A stretch of DNA of 26,922 nucleotides, from positions 1 through 26,922 of the forward strand of contig JBBQRQ010000068.1 in NCBI GenBank assembly GCA_038214755.1, written 5' to 3'. The translations under genes were made by a program, and so were the position numbers. Under the pieces are notes generated by a model that was given only the letters and a program-made list of their open reading frames with translations, searched no databases and was not told the origin of the DNA. The stretch's first letter is position 1, and each line of letters begins with the position of its first letter. Positions 2 to 20,080 of the stretch are shown here, piece by piece. The DNA is from Verrucomicrobiota bacterium. Its GTDB lineage: Bacteria; Verrucomicrobiota; Verrucomicrobiia; Limisphaerales; CANJXF01.

Positions 2-8
2 GTTAGGC
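2..8 (+). other. attC: attC R' core site (rest of the site lies upstream of the window)
   Basis: GTTAGGC at 2-8. GTTAGGCTC (2-10) is the reverse complement of GAGCCTAAC (613-621) at the other end of the cassette. Confidence 0.85.
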
Positions 9-16
9 TCCGACCT

Positions 17-607
17 GTGTTTAGCGAAATCCCTCTTTCCATGTTAGCGCGTATGCGTGAGCTTGAGCAGATTGACCAACGCGATCGCTCAGATGGTACT
101 CCTCATTCGGAGCGCCTGCGGCAGGTTTCGCCTGAGGCGGGCCGTTTTCTCGCGATTTTGGCGGCGATTGCCCCGCCCGGTGAGTGCCTCGAGATTGGGA
201 CGAGTGGAGGATACTCAGCCATGTGGATCGCTCTGGGTTGTCGGGCAAGAGGTGGTCGACTGATTACGTTCGAGACTTCGGAGCAGAAGGTCCGGCTAGC
301 TAGGCAGACGATTGAGCAAGCGCAGATAAGCTCTACAGTAGAGCTTGTGCAGGAAGACGCCTTGGAGCACCTGCCGCGTTTCCAGAAAATTAGCTTCTGC
401 TTCTTGGATGCAGAAAAGGATCTGTATGAGAAGTGCTACGACTTAGTGGTCCCTCGAATGGTTGAAGGTGCTCTTTTGATTGCTGACAATGCGATCAGTC
501 ATCAATCCTCACTTCAATCGTTTATTGATAACACACGCCGCGATAATCGGGTGGACTCGGTTCTTGTCCCGATAGGAACAGGCTCTCTGGTATGCAGGCG
601 CAAATGA
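17..607 (+). CDS. Class I SAM-dependent O-methyltransferase (caffeoyl-CoA OMT-like), cassette 1
   Basis: Motifs LEIGTSGGYSA, FLDAEK, IADNAI; GTG start 8 bp after the core site. Confidence 0.9.
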   Translation: MFSEIPLSMLARMRELEQIDQRDRSDGTPHSERLRQVSPEAGRFLAILAAIAPPGECLEIGTSGGYSAMWIALGCRARGGRLITFETSEQKVRLARQTIEQAQISSTVELVQEDALEHLPRFQKISFCFLDAEKDLYEKCYDLVVPRMVEGALLIADNAISHQSSLQSFIDNTRRDNRVDSVLVPIGTGSLVCRRK

Positions 608-614
608 TTTCAGA

Positions 615-738
615 GCCTAACCAAGCGATGCAGCGAACGACTACCCGCTGTTCGCCCCCCACTTCCCATGACTAAACCATTTCATCTCCGAGCGACGCTT
701 GCTCCCGGTAGGCGTCGCTGATCTTGTTCTCGTTAGGC
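615..738 (+). other. attC: attC site 1 (124 bp)
   Basis: R'' GCCTAAC 615-621, 5-nt spacer, L'' GATGCAGC ... L' GCTGATC, R' GTTAGGC 732-738. Confidence 0.93.
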
Positions 739-751
739 ATCATTCACGCGT

Positions 752-1063
752 ATGGGTTTTAAGATTTCACCGCCGGTTAATGCGATTCTTGGGCCAATGA
801 CTGTATTCGGCATTATTTGGATATCCGTCCACATGCTCGTGCTTCCTACCTTCGAGATCTTCGCGCCGCTTTCGGACGCTACTCGACGACTGGCATTGTT
901 AATCACGGTTTTCGTCGCTGCCGTCGCGGGTTCCGTTTACTCCTTGAGATTTGCACAGAGGGAACGAGCGAGATTGTCGCGGACTGATTTGGGATTCTAT
1001 TGGTTGTTTTGACCGATATTATTTTTCGGCATCTTTGGATTCGGAGTTTATTTGAGTCGATGA
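752..1063 (+). pseudogene. Small membrane protein with an internal TGA at 1010-1012, cassette 2
   Basis: The ORF stops at ...YWLF*, but the same frame continues as hydrophobic PILFFGIFGFGVYLSR to a TGA at 1061-1063, 7 bp before attC. Confidence 0.7.
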
Positions 1064-1070
1064 AGATGAT

Positions 1071-1331
1071 GCCTAACCAAGCGCGAGCCTGTGTGAAAAC
1101 TCAAATCTGGTCATTTTACAAAACGAAAAAGTGGTTCAAATCACTCTCGCCAAAAATAAAAACGCGCCAGAACAAAAATGTGAGCGTCGATTTTTTCATG
1201 CGGCTTGCTCGTGGTGAGTTTTCACACAGGCTCGCGCTGGAGCCAACGCGGTTGAGCCGTTCTGGTTTGCCGGGAAGTCGCGGGTGTGCTTGCGTTTTCG
1301 GTCCGCGTGGCTCAGCTTTTATCCGTTAGCT
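1071..1331 (+). other. attC: attC site 2, interrupted by a MITE (108 bp when reconstituted)
   Basis: Removing 1085-1233 and one GCGC restores GCCTAAC-CAAGC-GCTGGAGC...GCTCAGC-TTTTATCC-GTTAGCT. Confidence 0.9.
1085..1233. mobile_element. 149-bp MITE (ends resemble IS1182/IS5-type termini) inserted in attC2
   Basis: Perfect 19-bp terminal inverted repeats GAGCCTGTGTGAAAACTCA (1085-1103 / 1215-1233), GCGC duplicated on both sides (1081-1084, 1234-1237), A-rich non-coding interior. Confidence 0.88.
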
Positions 1332-1342
1332 GTCAATCGCGC

Positions 1343-1951
1343 ATGCACCCTGATATACCACCGCCATTGCCTCAACCGCCGCGAGTTCCGATGAGCAGCC
1401 GCAGCAAGCTCCTTGTCGGGCTGGCTCTTCTACCGGCATTTCTTGTTGGCGCACTGATTCTGCTTCGCGTTTGCGGACTGGTCCGACCGTTCTCCGTGCC
1501 CACGGGAGCGATGACGCCTGCGGTCTCCGCAGGCGACCACATTGTGATGGAAGGTATGACGTTTCTCTCTCGCCAGCCTCGTCTTGGAGATATTGTGGTC
1601 TTCAAGACCGACGGAATCGCTTCGTTGCCGTCTGCGACGATTTATGTCAAAAGGGTCGCAGGAAAGCCTGGAGACCATGTGCGGCTTTCAGAGGGTAAGT
1701 TGTTCATCAATGACAAGCAGGTGTCACTTAGCAATGTTGTGGGAGAGATTGCCTACGATCTGCCGCCCCGTGTTGGGACGTTTTCACTGCAGACCAACCT
1801 GACAGTTCCAAGCGGCTGCTATTTTGTGCTCGGTGATAATTCGACCAACAGCTTTGACAGCCGCTTTTGGGGTAGCGTCCCGCGCGCGAACATCATCGGC
1901 CGGGTTTCATTTTGTTATTGGCCACCACAAAGAGTCGGAGAAGTAAAATGA
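1343..1951 (+). CDS. lepB: Signal peptidase I (S26) homologue, cassette 3; nucleophile position is Ala
   Basis: N-terminal TM segment, PTGAMTP, GDIVVF, YVKRV, GDNSTNSFDSRFWG. The ATG at 1343 is the first start after the core site. Confidence 0.88.
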   Translation: MHPDIPPPLPQPPRVPMSSRSKLLVGLALLPAFLVGALILLRVCGLVRPFSVPTGAMTPAVSAGDHIVMEGMTFLSRQPRLGDIVVFKTDGIASLPSATIYVKRVAGKPGDHVRLSEGKLFINDKQVSLSNVVGEIAYDLPPRVGTFSLQTNLTVPSGCYFVLGDNSTNSFDSRFWGSVPRANIIGRVSFCYWPPQRVGEVK

Positions 1952-1952
1952 C

Positions 1953-2045
1953 AGCTAACCATGCTCTGCAGCTAACGGCGGCGGGCCATCGCGGTTGCAA
2001 TCGGCGCGTCTCGTGGCCGCCGTCGCTGAACTTGGGTCGTTAGGC
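1953..2045 (+). other. attC: attC site 3 (93 bp)
   Basis: AGCTAAC 1953-1959, L'' TCTGCAGC ... L' GCTGAAC, GTTAGGC 2039-2045. Confidence 0.92.
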
Positions 2046-2073: not shown

Positions 2074-2364
2074 ATGAAAACACAAAATACCTCCACCGAA
2101 ACGCACGCAGGAGTCATCCGCGCTGGCGTTATCAGTCTCTTAGTCTTCGCCCTTTGTTATGTCTGGATGACGGGGATTTCGGATACGCCGCGCGCATGGC
2201 TGTTTATCGTTTCTTTCGCGGTCTTCTTTGTCCTCATGATTCAGTCCATCGTTGACTTGCTTATCTTGGTGTTCGGGATCACCGCGAGGTTTTCAGGCAC
2301 GACCATCGGTCGGTCAGTGAGAGTCGTTCGTCGTCTTTTCTCACATGCTCCCAACGCGGCCTAA
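2074..2364 (+). CDS. Hypothetical membrane protein, cassette 4
   Basis: 96-aa ORF with two long hydrophobic segments that fills the cassette; its TAA stop lies within GCCTAAC. Confidence 0.8.
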   Translation: MKTQNTSTETHAGVIRAGVISLLVFALCYVWMTGISDTPRAWLFIVSFAVFFVLMIQSIVDLLILVFGITARFSGTTIGRSVRVVRRLFSHAPNAA

Positions 2365-2450
2365 CCATCGCTGTAGCGAACCCGGCCAACGCGCTGTGGT
2401 TGCAATCCGCGCGTCCCGCGGGCCGGGTCGCTGAGCTTGGGTCGTTAGGC
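2359..2450 (+). other. attC: attC site 4 (92 bp), last site of the array
   Basis: GCCTAAC 2359-2365 ... GCTGAGC-TTGGGTC-GTTAGGC 2444-2450; right half closely similar to attC3. Confidence 0.9.
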
Positions 2451-3560: not shown

Positions 3561-4733
3561 TCAAATCCCTTTCAAGCGGTAGAACCGATTGCTGCTGGAC
3601 AAAGGCACGATTACTTCATTGTGGAGGTTGGTGAGATTTAAGGTGGGTGGTGGCGTCACGTCATTCCAGTTCGTGATGTTCAAATCAGAGCTCTGCTGCA
3701 AGACGAAAGGCGTCGAAGGCAAAAGCCACGAAATAAGAAGGCTGCTGCCCGAATGTTTAATGCTCAGTAACGGATTTGGAGTTGATTCCCCGCGGTAAAT
3801 CGAGCGGTACCATCCCGCCGCGGCCAATTTATTTCCATCTGCCGAGGAGGCGATGGCTTGCCAAGTTTTAATCGGCGCGCTGTTTGACAGCCAGGTTGTC
3901 CCTGAATTCGTCGAGCTATAAATCGGCCCGTAACTGGCCGCGACCATCTTGCTCCCATCCGCAGAACACGCGACAGAATGCCAATGCTGAACTGGTGTGC
4001 CACCGGACGTCCAAGTCGCTCCCGAATTTGTGGAAGTATAAATTGGCCCGAGATCGGAAAAAGCGACTGCGACCAATTTGGTTCCGTCCGATGACGACGC
4101 GACAGAAGCCCAATTTGTGCTGGGCGCGTTGGCGGACATCCAGGTTCCTCCAGAGTTAGTGGAGATGTAAATCGATCCTCCGCACACCACCGCGACTAAT
4201 TTGATCCCATCCGCCGAAGAAGCGACGGCTTGCCAATAGTTGCTGTTCGGAGCGGAGGTTGCTACCCAAGACTCTCCGGAATTTGTAGAGGTATAAATCG
4301 GACCGAAGGCAGCGACCGCGACTAATTTGATCCCGTCTGCTGAAGAGGCGACAGCTTTCCACCAATTCGTGCCGGGAACTGCGATGGGTATCCAACTGGC
4401 TCCTGAATTTTGAGAAATAAAAATTTGGCCGCTGCCGCCGCCGTCCGGCATCCCGGTCGCTGCCACTAAACTCATTCCATCGGCTGACGAGGCGATAGAA
4501 CTCCAATTTGTGAACGGTGCGCTGGTTGCCGCCCAGTTGGTCCCCGAATTCGTCGAAATATAAATCGAGCCGGAGCTTGGCCCGCCCGCCGCCGCCACCA
4601 ACTTGGATCCATCCGCAGACGAAGCGATAGAAACCCAATTCGTTTCAGGCGCGCTGGTCGGCATCCAGTTTTGCGAAAAGGTAGAATGGGCCACGCCCAA
4701 AATGATTGCCGCCAATTGAGCTTTCGCTTTCAT
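3561..4733 (-). CDS. Secreted beta-propeller (BNR/Asp-box-like repeat) protein with C-terminal RFYRL domain
   Basis: Signal peptide from the ATG at 4733; about seven repeats of W..(V/I)ASSADG.KLVA....G.IY.STNSG..W. Confidence 0.85.
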   Translation of the reverse strand: MKAKAQLAAIILGVAHSTFSQNWMPTSAPETNWVSIASSADGSKLVAAAGGPSSGSIYISTNSGTNWAATSAPFTNWSSIASSADGMSLVAATGMPDGGGSGQIFISQNSGASWIPIAVPGTNWWKAVASSADGIKLVAVAAFGPIYTSTNSGESWVATSAPNSNYWQAVASSADGIKLVAVVCGGSIYISTNSGGTWMSANAPSTNWASVASSSDGTKLVAVAFSDLGPIYTSTNSGATWTSGGTPVQHWHSVACSADGSKMVAASYGPIYSSTNSGTTWLSNSAPIKTWQAIASSADGNKLAAAGWYRSIYRGESTPNPLLSIKHSGSSLLISWLLPSTPFVLQQSSDLNITNWNDVTPPPTLNLTNLHNEVIVPLSSSNRFYRLKGI

Positions 4734-4770
4734 TGCTTTCTTTTTCCACCACGCTACCGGCGAGTCAAGT

Positions 4771-6106
<1,336 letters not shown>

Positions 6107-6167: not shown

Positions 6168-6372
6168 GGGTGTGATTAAAAGCGGGTGAGGCTGGATTTG
6201 GTTTCTTGGACTGCGGCGGCATGACGCCGCTTTTCCTGCACGTTACGCGATGGAGAAAGTGCGCAAAAGGAAGAACCTTTCCGGCTTTTCCACCGTGCAG
6301 CCAAAGCGGGGACGTGTCCCCGCAGTCCAAAATAAGTTCGGTTCCAACCTCACCCACTTTTAATCACCCCCC
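6168..6372. mobile_element. ~205-bp MITE carrying an inverted REP pair, copy 1
   Basis: ~29-bp imperfect TIRs (GGGTGTGATTAAAAGYGGGTGAGGYTGGA), flanking direct repeat CGCAGTTCA (6159-6167 / 6373-6381), internal TTGGACTGCGG...CCGCTTT palindromes; second copy at 12241. Confidence 0.85.
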
Positions 6373-6610
6373 CGCAGTTCATGAAAAAAGAACAACAATA
6401 AACCACCCCCGCCCCCGTCCATCGTTTCGGGGGAACTTCAGAAGCTAGAGGGAAAGCCGACGCAAAATAAAACAACCGCTAAAGACAGCCCGCTCCACAG
6501 GCGGTGCGAAGCGTTTCCGTTTTTTGCGATTCCACGCGGGTGGATGAACCAGACCAACATCTCGCTGGTAGGTTGATGGAATTGGAGGCCCACCGAACTT
6601 ATCCCTTCCG

Positions 6611-7766: not shown

Positions 7767-8411
7767 TTACTTCATCCTCAGAACCGTGATTTGCCCGTCT
7801 CGTTCCAACGAGACTTCCTGCCGCTCGATTTTCACGACTCGCGCGCCCGCAACCGTTTCCCCCACCCCCAGAGTTTTTCCATTGATCAGCGCGGTTGGAT
7901 TGGAGAGCCGATAAAAAATTCCTTGCAGCTTTAGCGGGGGTGGCGCGGGGGGAGGAATAGGTTCACCCGCTTCTGCCACGCTCTGTGTTGATAATTTTTC
8001 TTCAACCGAACCTGAATTTGCGGAAGGTTGCGTGGAGACAGGTGTGACCTCGGCCGCTATTCTATTTTCCGGCTGCGCAGGAGTAACACTGGGCGCGACT
8101 TTCGTAGCCGCCGACGTGAGGAGGCGGTCTGACTTTTCCTGATTGCTTAAATCACTCCGCCTCCTCACGTCGTCGGCTACGGACTTGGAGTGGATTACGG
8201 TGGTGGAATTGGTCTTCAAACTTTTCCACAGAAAGAAGCCTGCCAGGAGTACGACCAAAGGAATCGCGATCAGTAAGATCGGCGCAAGAGAGGACGATGA
8301 CGATTTGGTCGGCGAAGGATTGGGCAGCATCGGCGCGCCAGCGGATGTGTCGGAAGATTCTTTTTTCTTCGTTTGATTTGCCCTGCGCAGCGCGTCGTTG
8401 ATTAAACTCAT
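7767..8411 (-). CDS. GspB/ExeB-like membrane protein
   Basis: MSLINDALRRA start, one TM helix, Pro/Ser linker, C-terminal LQGIFY...ALING...GARVVKI; overlaps the ExeA stop (ATGA). Confidence 0.75.
   Translation of the reverse strand: MSLINDALRRANQTKKKESSDTSAGAPMLPNPSPTKSSSSSLAPILLIAIPLVVLLAGFFLWKSLKTNSTTVIHSKSVADDVRRRSDLSNQEKSDRLLTSAATKVAPSVTPAQPENRIAAEVTPVSTQPSANSGSVEEKLSTQSVAEAGEPIPPPAPPPLKLQGIFYRLSNPTALINGKTLGVGETVAGARVVKIERQEVSLERDGQITVLRMK
8103..8181. repeat. GTAG-type REP doublet in-frame inside the GspB-like gene
   Basis: 25-bp inverted arms CGTAGCCG(C/A)CGACGTGAGGAGGCGG at 8103-8127 and 8157-8181, one mismatch. Confidence 0.85.
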
Positions 8412-9223: not shown

Positions 9224-9279
9224 GGGAATGGTGTAGCGGAAAAAAACCGGTGAGAAAAGCAAAATGGTTTTTGATGGGG

Positions 9280-9421
9280 ATAGCATCTGCCTCCGGCGGG
9301 TGCGGACAACACCCCTTCGGTGTTCAGCGTTGGATGTTCGATGTTCGGAGATGATAACCAATATCGAATATCCAACATCGACCTAAGAAATGTCTTCGCA
9401 CCCGCCGGAGGCAGATGCTAC
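9280..9421. repeat. REP doublet family A, copy 1
   Basis: Inverted arms TAGCATCTGCCTCCGGCGGGTGCG with TGTTCRR-like heptamers inside. Confidence 0.9.
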
Positions 9422-10548
9422 CCGGAAATTTTTCGCGCCGCTTGGATGAGCGCGTCCGCTTCTTGATCCGCGCCAACGGTGATGCGAAGGAAATCTTTCG
9501 CCTCGGGTTTGTTAAACCAACGAACTAAAATTTTTTCTGCGCGCAACTTCTCCAGCCATTCCCGCGCCGGAAATTTTGGCGGGCGCGCGAAAAGAAAATT
9601 CGTTTGGCTCGGGCAAACGGAAAAGCCGAGTCCGATTAATTCGAGGCGCAAACGTTCGCGCGTTGCTTTGATTTTCTGAAAATTCTTCCGGTAATAACCC
9701 AGATCAGAAAGCGTAGCCAACGCGGCGACTTGACCAAGCCCATTCACATTGTAGCTATCGCGAATTTTATCGAGCGCCGCGATGAGTTTGGGAGGACCCA
9801 CAAAATAACCGACGCGCTGGAAGCAAAGGGAATACGCTTTAGAAAAAGTGCGCGAGACAATGACGTTGGAATATTTCAACGCGAGCGGCAGCGCATTTTC
9901 ATCGGCGAAATCAACGTAAGCCTCATCGAGAATCACGACCCCTTTTGATTTTCGGCACAGCCTTTCAAGATCGGCAATCGAATAACCCCGGCCGGTCGGA
10001 GCATTGGGTGTCGTTACAAACGTGAGCGCTGCATAATGAAATATTTTTTTTGGGAAATAACCGATGCTATCGAGCGGCAGGGAAAAATCTTCATTTAATG
10101 CGACGGGATTTTCCAACGCGCCGTGAATCGCAGCCAGCACGGGATAAAGCGAATAACTCGGCGTAAAGTACTGCACCATGTTTTGCCCGGAGCGAAGTCC
10201 TTTCCGCCGGGAGAATTCATCCGGCGGCTCTACGAAACATCTCACCGCCAGAGCCAACAACTCATCGGAGCCATTGCCCACGATAATATTTTCCGGAGAG
10301 CAACGGTGAAATTTTGCGAGCTTCTCCCTCAGCCGTTGTGCAGTAGGATTGGGATAAAGACGAAGTCTTGCATCCACCGCGCGCCGAATGGCTTTCAGAA
10401 CTTTGGGCGATGGAGAGTAAGGATTTTCGTTTGTATTTAGTTTGATCAGCCCCCGAATCTCAGGCTGCTCACCGGGAACGTAGCCATGCAACCCGCGCAC
10501 GAGCGGGCGAATGAAGCGAACAGGTTTTGCGCGCAGTGGCATAAACAT
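9418..10548 (-). CDS. hisC: Histidinol-phosphate aminotransferase
   Basis: KLNTNENPY, GNGSDE, PNAPTG, DEAYVDF, RTFSKAYSL, LRITVG. Confidence 0.96.
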   Translation of the reverse strand: MFMPLRAKPVRFIRPLVRGLHGYVPGEQPEIRGLIKLNTNENPYSPSPKVLKAIRRAVDARLRLYPNPTAQRLREKLAKFHRCSPENIIVGNGSDELLALAVRCFVEPPDEFSRRKGLRSGQNMVQYFTPSYSLYPVLAAIHGALENPVALNEDFSLPLDSIGYFPKKIFHYAALTFVTTPNAPTGRGYSIADLERLCRKSKGVVILDEAYVDFADENALPLALKYSNVIVSRTFSKAYSLCFQRVGYFVGPPKLIAALDKIRDSYNVNGLGQVAALATLSDLGYYRKNFQKIKATRERLRLELIGLGFSVCPSQTNFLFARPPKFPAREWLEKLRAEKILVRWFNKPEAKDFLRITVGADQEADALIQAARKISG

Positions 10549-10607: not shown

Positions 10608-10681
10608 GGGTAGCATCTGCCTCCGGCGGGTGCGAAAAGAATTTTTTTTTTATTCGCACCCGCCGGAGGCAGATGCTACCC
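10608..10681. repeat. REP doublet family A, copy 2
   Basis: Perfect 29-bp inverted repeat GGGTAGCATCTGCCTCCGGCGGGTGCGAA around a 16-nt AT-rich spacer. Confidence 0.92.
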
Positions 10682-10843
10682 CGGAAGATGGTCTCGTTAC
10701 GTTAAATGCTTTTCCCGATGTTTTCGTTTGCGGACATCTTGTTCCTTGTGCGCCAGAGAAAACAACTGAGGTCGGAATATATTTTTACAGCATCGCTCTT
10801 TTGCACCTTTGCGCTCAGGTTATTTCCCGGTAATCTTTGGCGC

Positions 10844-11554: not shown

Positions 11555-11732
11555 AGTGTGATTTCAAGTGGCGGTCAAACGTAGCGCAGGATTGCATCCT
11601 GCCGTATCGCAGGTTTTCAACCTGCGAGATGCCGCCAGAACGGAAGACTTTCGAAAACCAAAGGCTTTCTTTATTTCCGACGTTCAGCCGGTTTCAAACC
11701 GGCGATACAGCAGGATGCAATCCTGCGCTACG
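11555..11732. repeat. REP doublet family B (four hairpins), copy 1
   Basis: CGTAGCGCAGGATTGCATCCTGC...GCAGGATGCAATCCTGCGCTACG (11580-11732), with a left flank shared with the copy at 16546. Confidence 0.88.
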
Positions 11733-12240: not shown

Positions 12241-12428
12241 GGGGGTGTGATTAAAAGTGGGAGAGGTTGGAACCGAACTTATTTTTGGCCTGCGGGGACA
12301 CGCCCCCGCTTTGGCTGCACGGTGGAAAAGCCGGAAAGGTTTATTTTGAGCTTTCTCCCTCGCGTCACGTGCAGGAAAAGCGGCGTCAGGCCGTCGCAGT
12401 CCAAAAAAAACCAAATCCCGCCTCACCC
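12241..12428. mobile_element. REP-carrying MITE, copy 2 (inverted relative to copy 1, one end truncated)
   Basis: Reverse complement is highly similar to 6185-6372; the outer part of the second TIR is missing. Confidence 0.85.
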
Positions 12429-16333: not shown

Positions 16334-16402
16334 AGAATAAAAATAATCTAGGCAGGCTTGGTCGGATTGGGCAACGAAACTTCCGCTGCGTCGCACCACC
16401 AC

Positions 16403-16544
16403 CGGGTAGCATCTGCCTCCGGCGGGCGTGGCTAGAATTTTCCCAATTCGATGTTCAGTGTTCGATGTTCAATGTTCGGAAAGGAATTGACATCGAACAC
16501 TGAACACCGAACTGACTCGCACCCGCGGAGGCAGATGCTACCCG
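16403..16544. repeat. REP doublet family A, copy 3
   Basis: Same arms, slightly decayed, with direct and inverted TGTTCRR heptamer runs inside. Confidence 0.88.
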
Positions 16545-16545
16545 A

Positions 16546-16706
16546 AGTGTGATTTCAACCGGCGGTCAAAACGTAGCGCAGATTTCCAATCTGCCGTATC
16601 GCGGGTTCCCAACCCGCAGACGCTGGACAGTTCAAACGCATCTGGAATTGTGGAGGTCCAACCGATTAGAAATCGGCGATACAGCAGGTTGGAAATCTGC
16701 GCTACG
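16546..16706. repeat. REP doublet family B, copy 2
   Basis: CGTAGCGCAGATTTCCAATCTGC...GCAGGTTGGAAATCTGCGCTACG (16572-16706) plus the shared left flank. Confidence 0.88.
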
Positions 16707-18171: not shown

Positions 18172-18921
18172 TCAATCTCTCGAATTCTCCTCTATGCTTT
18201 CATCGTTCTCAATCTCGAGATGTCCGAGCTCTTTTAGCCGAGTTTCCGCAAGTTTTTCCAAACGCCGGGCTTGGGTGAGCAAGGTTCTGCGAAGCCCAGG
18301 AGAAACTTTTCGTTCGCTGATAACTCGGGCTAAACTGGCAATCGTGTTTGCACGGCGCGCTATTCGAATATCAGGATGTTTGCGTTGAGGATAAATTGAA
18401 TCAGGAATAATCCGTTTTCGATGAGATGCCGCAAGTTCAACAGTTGCCAGCGAAACCGGCACTTTCTCGTTCAAGACCGCTCCAAGGTTTGATTCCTTGA
18501 TGACTTTCTGAAACAGCGTGAATTCGGCACGGTCGAGATAGTTGCACCGTTCGGATAGAGCGATGTCTTTCAAATCAAGCGGCCAGATACAAATCTCAGC
18601 GACCTCGAATGGATCAAGAACGTTCATCGCAACGGCGTCAGTCCGTTGGTTTGTAAGATGACGGCTGATTCGCTGGCGAAGGGTTTCAAATGTCTGGCCA
18701 ATGTAGATCGGTTCTCCGTCGTAATCGTAAAACGCATAAACGCCATATTGGTAATTGCCGATTTTCTTTCCACTCGCGTCTTTCGAATCAAAGAATATTG
18801 AGATCTCTTTGCGAATGGCAGCGACGTCGGACGGCAAACCTACCGGCGTTCCGGGTGCCGGGGCACCTTTACCTGTAGCGGATTGGACGCGGTTGGGTTT
18901 CAGGGATTTTTTCTGAGGCAT
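18172..18921 (-). CDS. GIY-YIG nuclease, putative restriction endonuclease
   Basis: GVYAFYDYDGEPIYIGQT, conserved Arg in LRQRI, downstream AE and LNE; overlaps the methyltransferase 3' end. Confidence 0.85.
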   Translation of the reverse strand: MPQKKSLKPNRVQSATGKGAPAPGTPVGLPSDVAAIRKEISIFFDSKDASGKKIGNYQYGVYAFYDYDGEPIYIGQTFETLRQRISRHLTNQRTDAVAMNVLDPFEVAEICIWPLDLKDIALSERCNYLDRAEFTLFQKVIKESNLGAVLNEKVPVSLATVELAASHRKRIIPDSIYPQRKHPDIRIARRANTIASLARVISERKVSPGLRRTLLTQARRLEKLAETRLKELGHLEIENDESIEENSRD

Positions 18922-20041
18922 AATTTTCAATCCAGACAGGTGTGAGATAGTTATCTGCAATCCATCGAATCACAGACACACAAACGGCGTCACCAAAACC
19001 GAACAACGCCTGATTCAGCGATGCTTTAATTGCGAAATCGTCAGCGCCCATCAACCGGGCGCATTCGCGTGGCGTTAGAAGACGGACGAAAAATTTTCCG
19101 CCTCCAGCGGCAAACAAGATTTGCCGGCCGCTTCCACCGCGGGGTGTACGCAGGCACCCAGCAATTCCATCTACGCGCAATTCTGCCATTGACTTCCCAA
19201 CTCGAACGCGTCGAAAAACCGTTCCATAAGTAATTGATTTTCCGCAAATCATGGAGTCCGCCATCTGGCGATGTTTGCTGCTCATTTGATTCAGCAAGTA
19301 ATCTGCCCGATCCCGATTCCACCAAAGTTTGGAATTAGGAGACACCCGTTCCAAAATGTCTGCAAGCTGAGTCTGTCGATTTGGAAGCGATGGCAAGGGA
19401 CGAATGTTCCAGTCTATGTCTGGATGCCACATTATAAAATCCGCCAGAGCGGAGGGCCGGGTTTCGCTTTCGTTAAAATGCATTGTGTCATGAAGAATAT
19501 CCGGACTGATTTTTTTTCTCCCTACGACAAAAAGCCGTTGCCGGCTTTGTGGAACAAAACGAGAAGCGTCGATAATGAATGCATCAACAGAATAATTTAG
19601 TTCGTTCAAAGCGACGAGCGCATCTTCAAAATCACTTCCTTCGTGTGATGTTAAAAATCCAGTAACATTTTCCAATAAAACCAAGGACGGTCCGCGCTTC
19701 TCCATCTTTCTCAACACCTCAACAAAGCCCCAAAACGCCTTCGACTGTTCCCCGGCCAACCCTTTGCGCGCTCCGGCAAGTGACAAATCGTTGCAAGGAA
19801 AAGATGCCGTGGCCAAGTCAATATCGGGCAAGACGTTTGCATCAAGTTCATGGATGTCACCAAGATGAAACTCGCCACTGTCACCAAATTGCTCCCGATA
19901 CATTTCCCATTTCTTCTCGTCGATATCATTGGCAAATACCGCGTCCCACCCGGATTCCTCCAACCCTAAACGCATTAAACCAATCCCCGCGAAAAACTCT
20001 GCGAAGCGTGGATTTTTGAATGAAGAATTTGGCGAGCGCAT
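18869..20041 (-). CDS. dcm: DNA (cytosine-5)-methyltransferase
   Basis: FFAGIG, FPCNDLS, ENV, QSRQR, RECARLMG, GDAV; alternative starts at 20056 and 20068. Confidence 0.95.
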   Translation of the reverse strand: MRSPNSSFKNPRFAEFFAGIGLMRLGLEESGWDAVFANDIDEKKWEMYREQFGDSGEFHLGDIHELDANVLPDIDLATASFPCNDLSLAGARKGLAGEQSKAFWGFVEVLRKMEKRGPSLVLLENVTGFLTSHEGSDFEDALVALNELNYSVDAFIIDASRFVPQSRQRLFVVGRKKISPDILHDTMHFNESETRPSALADFIMWHPDIDWNIRPLPSLPNRQTQLADILERVSPNSKLWWNRDRADYLLNQMSSKHRQMADSMICGKSITYGTVFRRVRVGKSMAELRVDGIAGCLRTPRGGSGRQILFAAGGGKFFVRLLTPRECARLMGADDFAIKASLNQALFGFGDAVCVSVIRWIADNYLTPVWIENYASEKIPETQPRPIRYR

Positions 20042-20080
20042 GAAACTATCTCGCATGGAAGTTATCATCTTGGCAACGAA

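Follow-up and report, generated by a model that had tools for sequence, protein, structure and literature searches.

Organization of the cassette array

The window, which is the whole stretch of 26,922 nucleotides analyzed here, belongs to a Verrucomicrobiota genome assembly of 175 contigs that is 96.96% complete. The attC sites and elements of this genome resemble those in records titled Verrucomicrobiota, which agrees with such a host. The window opens within a cassette array, with the tail of an attC site at the contig start followed by four cassettes. The features of this region are collected in Table 1. One of the attC sites, attC2, is interrupted by an inserted element.

Table 1. Features of the cassette array and of the element inserted in attC2 (positions in the window)
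Feature	Position	Strand	Description
Cassette 1 gene	2..607	+	O-methyltransferase; follows the R' tail of an attC truncated at the contig start
attC1	615..738	+	Intact
Cassette 2 gene	752..1063	+	No Pfam match; hydrophobic-looking; in-frame stop at 1010-1012
R'' of attC2	1071..1077	+	Insertion moved L'' 153 bp further off
Target duplication, left copy	1081..1084	+	4 bp; attC nt 11-14
MITE	1085..1233	.	Without transposase; interior unlike sampled full-length IS
Left TIR	1085..1103	+	19 bp; first 18 bp equal the ends of IS1182-family elements
Right TIR	1215..1233	-	19 bp
Target duplication, right copy	1234..1237	+	4 bp
L'' of attC2	1236..1243	+	Intact, with extra-helical base
L' of attC2	1310..1316	+	Pairs 7/7 with L''
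R' of attC2	1325..1331	+	With G/TT crossover; start of cassette 3
Cassette 3 gene	1343..1951	+	Signal peptidase I (Peptidase_S26)
attC3	1953..2045	+	Element-free
Cassette 4 gene	2074..2364	+	96 aa; no Pfam match
attC4	2359..2450	+	Element-free; spacer one base short; final site of the array

When the element and one copy of GCGC are removed in silico, a 108-nt attC site is obtained, with a 5-nt spacer after R'', an 8-nt L'' including one extra base, and an 8-nt spacer before R'. Cassette 2 begins with the exact complement of the R'' of attC2, and cassette 3 with that of the R'' of attC3. The original prediction that removal restores a canonical attC therefore holds, both by the pairing of the arms (7/7) and by a natural homologue, locus L235 from a genome of the same genus, in which the attC is uninterrupted and contains a single GCGC. 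Among the three homologues of attC2 listed, L235 is of the single-GCGC type, and the two others differ in the spacer. The insertion had also been correctly placed at the junction of spacer and L'', where the duplication takes in 2 nt from the end of the spacer and 2 nt from the beginning of L''.

Judging from its sequence, the reading frame of cassette 2 (752-1063) is probably a pseudogene, and its stop codon fits a decaying array. The gene intI is absent from the window. An intact intI (TIGR02249, 447 bits, no stops) is located near the end of another contig, C31. Upstream of this gene lie an attI-like site, a single cassette and an attC that is truncated where the contig ends (C31:47534-48622, locus L230).

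Structure of the inserted element

The insert at 1085-1233 is 149 bp long and has perfect 19-bp terminal inverted repeats (TIRs) at both ends. Its GC content is 42%, compared with 52.7% for the genome. GCGC flanks it on both sides (1081-1084 and 1234-1237), and this palindromic target extends the perfect inverted repeat to 24 bp (1080-1103/1215-1238). The rough probability that a perfect 19-bp inverted repeat within 200 nt occurs in the window by chance is about 2e-5. The element is short, has TIRs and a target duplication, contains no transposase gene and occurs in multiple copies at differing sites. These are the features of a MITE, and the original prediction is borne out both in this classification and in the dimensions of the element, its TIRs and its GCGC duplication. 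An Rfam search of positions 1-2600 of the window gave no match, and no sigma-70-like promoter was found between 1000 and 1400, which gives no support for an outward promoter.

One public run contains the stretch; it is possibly the source sample and is therefore not independent. Its contig 1204-2003 crosses the right junction of the element, the left junction is absent from the eight pieces listed for that run, and contigs of the run end at the MITE. An empty attC2 allele was not seen in the contigs of this single run that match the stretch, a result which is uninformative.

Family of the element

The exact 18-bp end pattern of the element was searched in a species-genome collection and was found at 124 loci at least. 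The loci listed fall into two size classes, MITEs of about 100-170 bp and long elements of 1640-1680 bp. Elements of 1670-1680 bp (about 1.67 kb) have the 18-bp ends of the MITE, and the long elements encode transposases of 474-482 amino acid residues that pass the IS1182 model NF033551 with 420 bits against a cut-off of 270. The parent-type transposase contains the domains DUF772 and DDE_Tnp_1_6. The MITE thus has its ends in common with elements encoding IS1182 transposases, together with a 4-bp duplication. The ends had originally been recognized as those of a DDE-type IS like IS1182 or IS5; the assignment to IS1182 stands (NF033551, DDE_Tnp_1_6), and that to IS5 does not.

The closest named elements among plasmids are ISPa7 and ISPmo1, with 50% and 49% identity to the parent transposase, respectively. 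No plasmid record is 60% or more identical to the transposase of a full-length element, L038, at E<=1e-100. Among 401 genomes of the host's order, the end pattern is present in 29 and a transposase match at E<=1e-60 in 15. The interior of the MITE has no significant match to the sampled parents, and the ends alone are common. Derivation of the MITE by deletion from a specific sampled parent was considered and rejected, as only the ends match.

A tree was built from 28 transposases, which remained of 38 rows once 10 identical ones had been removed; L071 was labelled attC despite its tandem or unassigned flanks, and L089 has no flanks. The attC-associated transposases fall into two well-supported groups in this tree, apart from ISPa7 and ISPmo1. 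One group contains those of Verrucomicrobiota and the other those of Gemmatimonadota and Rokubacteria. The attC label requires three changes on this tree of 28 rows, which is compatible with one origin or with two. AlphaFold gave a poor model of the transposase (pTM 0.46), which matched no other fold at E<=0.001. A relative of solved structure was not found by sequence either, so that there is no structural clue to the targeting.

Copies in the source genome

Two complete and three partial copies of the MITE occur in the genome. The other complete copy, on contig C73, is 97% identical; the partial copies are on C129, C24 and C75, and a related end is on C18. The partial copy on C24 follows an R'' and that on C129 adjoins an L'', both at the same register as in the window. 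The copy on C75 and the end on C18 were left without assignment. On C5 a remnant of a related IS1182 element terminates at an R'', again at the register of the window. In total, three of nine high-scoring attC left arms in the genome are occupied at the register of the window, plus one L'' half on C129.

The copy on C73 is the closest sister of the window MITE and is located outside any attC. A relative has an empty site at this locus with a single copy of the four bases, and because of this the C73 copy is a true off-target insertion, with a duplication that later changed by one base.

An intact parent IS was not found in this 97%-complete assembly; the matching transposase is present as fragments only, with 52-64% identity, on C5, C25 and C58. 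The search for other copies and an autonomous IS, which had been suggested as a check, thus yielded further copies here and parents in other genomes, and no intact parent in this one. A near-complete IS1182 element at C3:61800-63422 is ruled out as the parent, having different ends and 26-47% identity. The transposase gene of this C3 element contains one stop codon.

Position of the insertions relative to attC

The flanks of the elements were scored by two weight matrices, for which 19 attC sites free of elements served as the training set. The matrices cover attC positions 1-10 and 15-26 with the duplication excluded, and each was set to 0.5% false positives on random genome positions. The training sites were from the same host groups, and the matrices are less sensitive for sites of the Gemmatimonadota type. 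They replaced a strict pairing classifier, which was dropped as it missed many L'' halves, with signal at neighbouring registers. A genome-wide regular expression for intact attC was noisy (16 matches versus 48 in the reversed genome) and served for training candidates only.

The matches listed contain 225 distinct ends, 118 of them from loci titled Verrucomicrobiota or of the same order, and five of these 118 are tandem. Among the matches listed, 86 of the 113 non-tandem ends are an attC half at the register of the window (45 R'' and 41 L''), which is a descriptive count, the ends being not independent (two per element, related genomes). When the same 113 ends are shifted by -8 to +8 positions, two at most are found per class. 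The count is 80 of 104 ends if the source genome and an unpublished genome, G009, are left out; G009 supplies two of the 113 ends and one row each in the sets of 27 elements, 24 rows and 36 sites described below. In the other phyla, also among the matches listed, attC halves at this register were found for 10/13 ends in Gemmatimonadota, 1/1 in Rokubacteria and 1/1 in Chloroflexota. The same 18-bp end is rarely or never at attC in Proteobacteria (1/16) and Acidobacteriota (0/20), and the values for Prosthecobacter, for other taxa and for ends with no taxon assigned are 0/2, 0/5 and 21/49.

A second set was blind to the target and consisted of the best 80 of 521 metagenome loci, picked by the L038 transposase alone. 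Here R'' is present in 51 of 58 distinct right flanks and L'' in 37 of 60 left flanks, with two at most at shifted registers; the opposite assignment is found in 2/58 right and 5/60 left flanks. The distal arm, L' with GTT, is present in 27 of 48 long flanks compared with 12 of 960 shuffles, and 37 of 55 loci have perfect 4-bp duplications. For MITEs of the type in the window, an attC half adjoins the element in 17 of 24 rows; the orientation is that of the window in 12 of these and the opposite one in five. Full elements are mostly oriented against the array, so that transposase gene and cassettes are read in opposite directions. The mirror position at L' is nearly unused (1/118 and 0/111 ends).

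The pattern recurs in better assembled genomes. In a long-contig Verrucomicrobiae genome, 18 of the 21 ends were examined; 16 of them score, and at the remaining two an R'' is displaced by one base. On a complete Longimicrobiales chromosome, 6 of 12 ends score, with both halves in only one of six copies.

The duplicated bases are CGCT, GCGC, TCGC, CGCA and others, and their position in attC is constant. GCGC is therefore ruled out as the target sequence, and the copies are not simply distributed over GCGC sites unrelated to attC. It is noted that 27 of the 113 ends and 7 of the 24 rows of the window-type MITE were not assigned to attC, which argues against strict targeting. The targeting of attC is a strong preference and is not absolute, as the off-target C73 copy shows. 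This agrees with the original proposal of an attC-preferring family, given the 86/113 ends and the 51/58 right flanks.

Ordinary insertion of a MITE at random, or a chimera of the assembly, with no targeting involved, is very improbable. The contigs of the public run do break at the MITE, and 11 of 27 elements flanked by two attC halves have mismatched duplications. However, a perfect duplication and complementary halves are present in the window, the register controls are negative and the same pattern is seen in genomes with long contigs, so that this explanation is largely refuted.

Possible mode of target recognition

The reading that we consider probable is of a MITE of the IS1182 family, related to ISPa7 and specialized for attC, which is moved in trans by a transposase reading the double-stranded left arm of the site and which has left attC2 largely inactive. 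A DDE transposase from a parent of about 1.67 kb would bind the ends of the MITE in trans. It would read a double-stranded target in two parts, approximately RYYTAAC-N3-[4 bp]-TGNAGC, corresponding to R'' and L'', and make a 4-bp staggered cut with insertion between the two. The MITE would thereby settle between genes, at a safe site that is renewable.

Reading of double-stranded DNA is proposed because the insertions preserve the two flanks and duplicate 4 bp perfectly, and because the mirror L' arm is almost unused. The target is proposed to have two parts because an L''-like sequence alone would be far too common; the source genome contains 324 L''-like sites, and only four of them are accompanied by R''. 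That the sequence is read linearly is suggested by the 10 of 36 two-half sites with perfect duplications that have no detectable distal arm.

The remaining 26 of these 36 sites are complete attC sites with the distal arm, as expected if the attC were targeted through its folded hairpin or cruciform, or by recruitment by IntI or another host factor, and not through the linear sequence. We consider this unlikely. IS1272, also of the IS1182 family, is described as targeting inverted-repeat structures (PMC5678879), and more distant relatives of the present elements are located in palindromes, both of which agree with a folded target. However, in the available part of that description IS1272 replaces the repeat with no duplication, whereas here the whole attC is retained and 4 bp are duplicated. 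The 10 sites lacking a detectable arm also argue against folding, although decay or length could explain them, as do the several copies located at an R''-like sequence with no canonical L'' and the nearly unused mirror arm.

A different possibility, to which we assign a small probability, is a loose motif preference like that of ISPmo1, for AGC at 4-6 nt beyond the duplication, with attC being incidental and insertions there surviving as intergenic. It would account for the off-target copy on C73. ISPmo1 and several proteobacterial MITEs are located 7 nt from a GTCCGCT-like motif resembling the inner part of L'', and where the spacer has 6 nt the register tracks L'' in a few cases. On the other hand, a loose motif does not explain why R'' is precisely spaced in 51 of 58 right flanks (best 80 of 521 loci), and L''-like motifs are about 80-fold commoner than attC here, yet most element ends are at attC. 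The site of ISPmo1 itself is a short palindrome in which AGC is equally far from the duplication, and by analogy one might speculate that an older preference for a motif was retuned to attC. Purifying selection against insertions elsewhere may also give rise to the concentration at attC.

Predicted effect on recombination at attC2

The predicted probability of the recombinogenic fold of attC2 is 0.29 without the MITE and 4.7e-4 with it, that is, about 600-fold rarer. This proxy is rough, as the element-free attC1 and attC3 also give low values of 3e-3 and 1e-2. In the predicted bottom-strand fold with the MITE, the 24-bp terminal stem occupies the first 3 nt of L'', and even the recombinogenic fold carries an arm of 149 nt in the central spacer. 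The pairing probability of the R box in the interrupted site is still about 0.3. By reading the sequence, no substitute R'' was found inside the TIR.

The unpaired central spacer normally has 5-6 nt per arm and is reported to influence recombination (PMC5027507). The 153 extra bases in this spacer would largely inactivate attC2, and cassettes 2 and 3 would then move only jointly via attC1 and attC3, the MITE included. On the basis of these predicted folds, attC2 is probably dead or nearly dead and the two cassettes locked together. Because the TIR stem takes up the first 3 nt of L'', the earlier suggestion that the TIRs might loop out and the site stay partly active is not favoured.

Possible rearrangement of arrays by the elements

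The duplications of elements with two attC halves are perfect in 16 of 27 cases and mismatched in 11, and mismatches also occur in genomes with long contigs; some of the mismatched ones may be chimeras of short reads. In L095 (846-5018)/L096, two inverted full IS copies flank a 0.9-kb block of two cassettes with an intact attC, and one copy has the flanks L''/L'' and the other R''/R''. Judged by its sequence, this arrangement corresponds to an inversion with both ends at the attC register. In L068, L071, L207 and L222, tandem elements are parted by a single 4-bp duplication, which suggests that an occupied attC was hit again.

It is conceivable, and is put forward here only tentatively, that the elements provide a second layer of rearrangement that does not depend on IntI. 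Attack on other attC sites, or recombination between copies, would lead to deletion or inversion of cassette blocks and to exchange of attC halves; deletion and inversion of blocks are envisaged because every copy, on this proposal, is located at the same attC register. The elements may also scatter cassettes around the chromosome.

Comparison with known systems

It is useful to compare these elements with their nearest named relatives. ISPa7 and ISPmo1, whose transposases are 50% and 49% identical to that of the parent, have similar ends and lengths of 1.65-1.68 kb; unlike the elements described here, the single copy of each that was inspected by eye is outside attC. ISPse1 is reported with a length of 1653 bp, a 16-bp inverted repeat and a 4-bp direct repeat (PMC3281130). 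MITEPye1 of Paracoccus yeei is a 159-bp MITE with 18-bp TIRs of the IS1182 type and 4-bp direct repeats, and is thought to be mobilized in trans (PMC11578231). It is intergenic at varied places, with no attC target mentioned in the accessible part of that paper, whereas the element in the window is at attC. IS1272 of Staphylococcus shares the IS1182 family and a selectivity for inverted repeats, but replaces the repeat with no duplication and with no integron link in the portion available of its description (PMC5678879), while the present elements duplicate 4 bp in attC.

Elements of the IS1111-attC group (ISPa21, ISPst6, ISKpn4) insert at a constant point close to the 5' end of attC and are oriented antisense to cassette transcription (PMC3001079, PMC11187229). 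The elements here are likewise fixed near the 5' end of attC and antisense, without being members of that group. The IS1111-attC elements have a DEDD transposase, sub-terminal repeats and a seekRNA guide, whereas here a DDE transposase of the IS1182 family, true terminal repeats and a 4-bp duplication are found. Group IIC-attC introns enter the bottom strand of attC, opposite to the cassettes (PMC3001079, PMC7923331). These are retroelements, and their TTGT/T site, by our mapping, is within R'' and not at the junction of spacer and L''. The insert in attC2 is not such an intron, being a 149-bp element with TIRs and no Rfam match, whose parents encode a transposase.

An IS is reported to be present in 12% of CALINs and, among complete integrons, in 23% (PMC4889954). 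In the parts available of the literature, including PMC12444791, PMC12888890, PMC9137128 and PMC3971601, the only elements described as targeting attC are those of the IS1111 family and group II introns. No report of IS1182 elements or MITEs targeting attC was found; ISfinder, subscription journals and supplements were outside this search and may hold a precedent. The present case would be one of a classical DDE IS, with several MITE offspring, that has converged on the niche of the IS1111-attC elements and group IIC-attC introns, apparently through recognition of the left arm of attC. It would offer a simple system for the question of how a DDE transposase gains site specificity, as well as a way for cassette arrays on chromosomes to become frozen, fused or broken up. 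Programs for finding attC probably overlook interrupted sites in Verrucomicrobiota and Gemmatimonadota, because elements occupy three of the nine left arms that score highly in this genome.

Additional observations

ISPmo1 (L154) and the proteobacterial MITEs that share the end of the window element (L029, L042, L055, L108, L114 and L136) are 7-9 nt from a GTCCGCT-like motif, the ISPmo1 copy being centred in its short palindrome. Elements with the same end in Acidobacteriota and Prosthecobacter are located in REP-like palindromes and not in attC (L030, L032, L041, L088, L130, L151; L045, L046, L129).

The window also contains REP-like intergenic palindromic repeats of several families (6168-6373 and 12241-12408; 9277-9428, 10608-10686 and 16402-16548; 11577-11732 and 16569-16706; 8103-8181). 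A protein of 417 residues encoded on the minus strand at 3561-4814 has internal repeats of 40-43 residues and a weak Sortilin/Vps10-like match. At 18172-20068, also on the minus strand, a C5 DNA methylase gene adjoins a GIY-YIG nuclease gene, possibly forming a restriction-modification pair.
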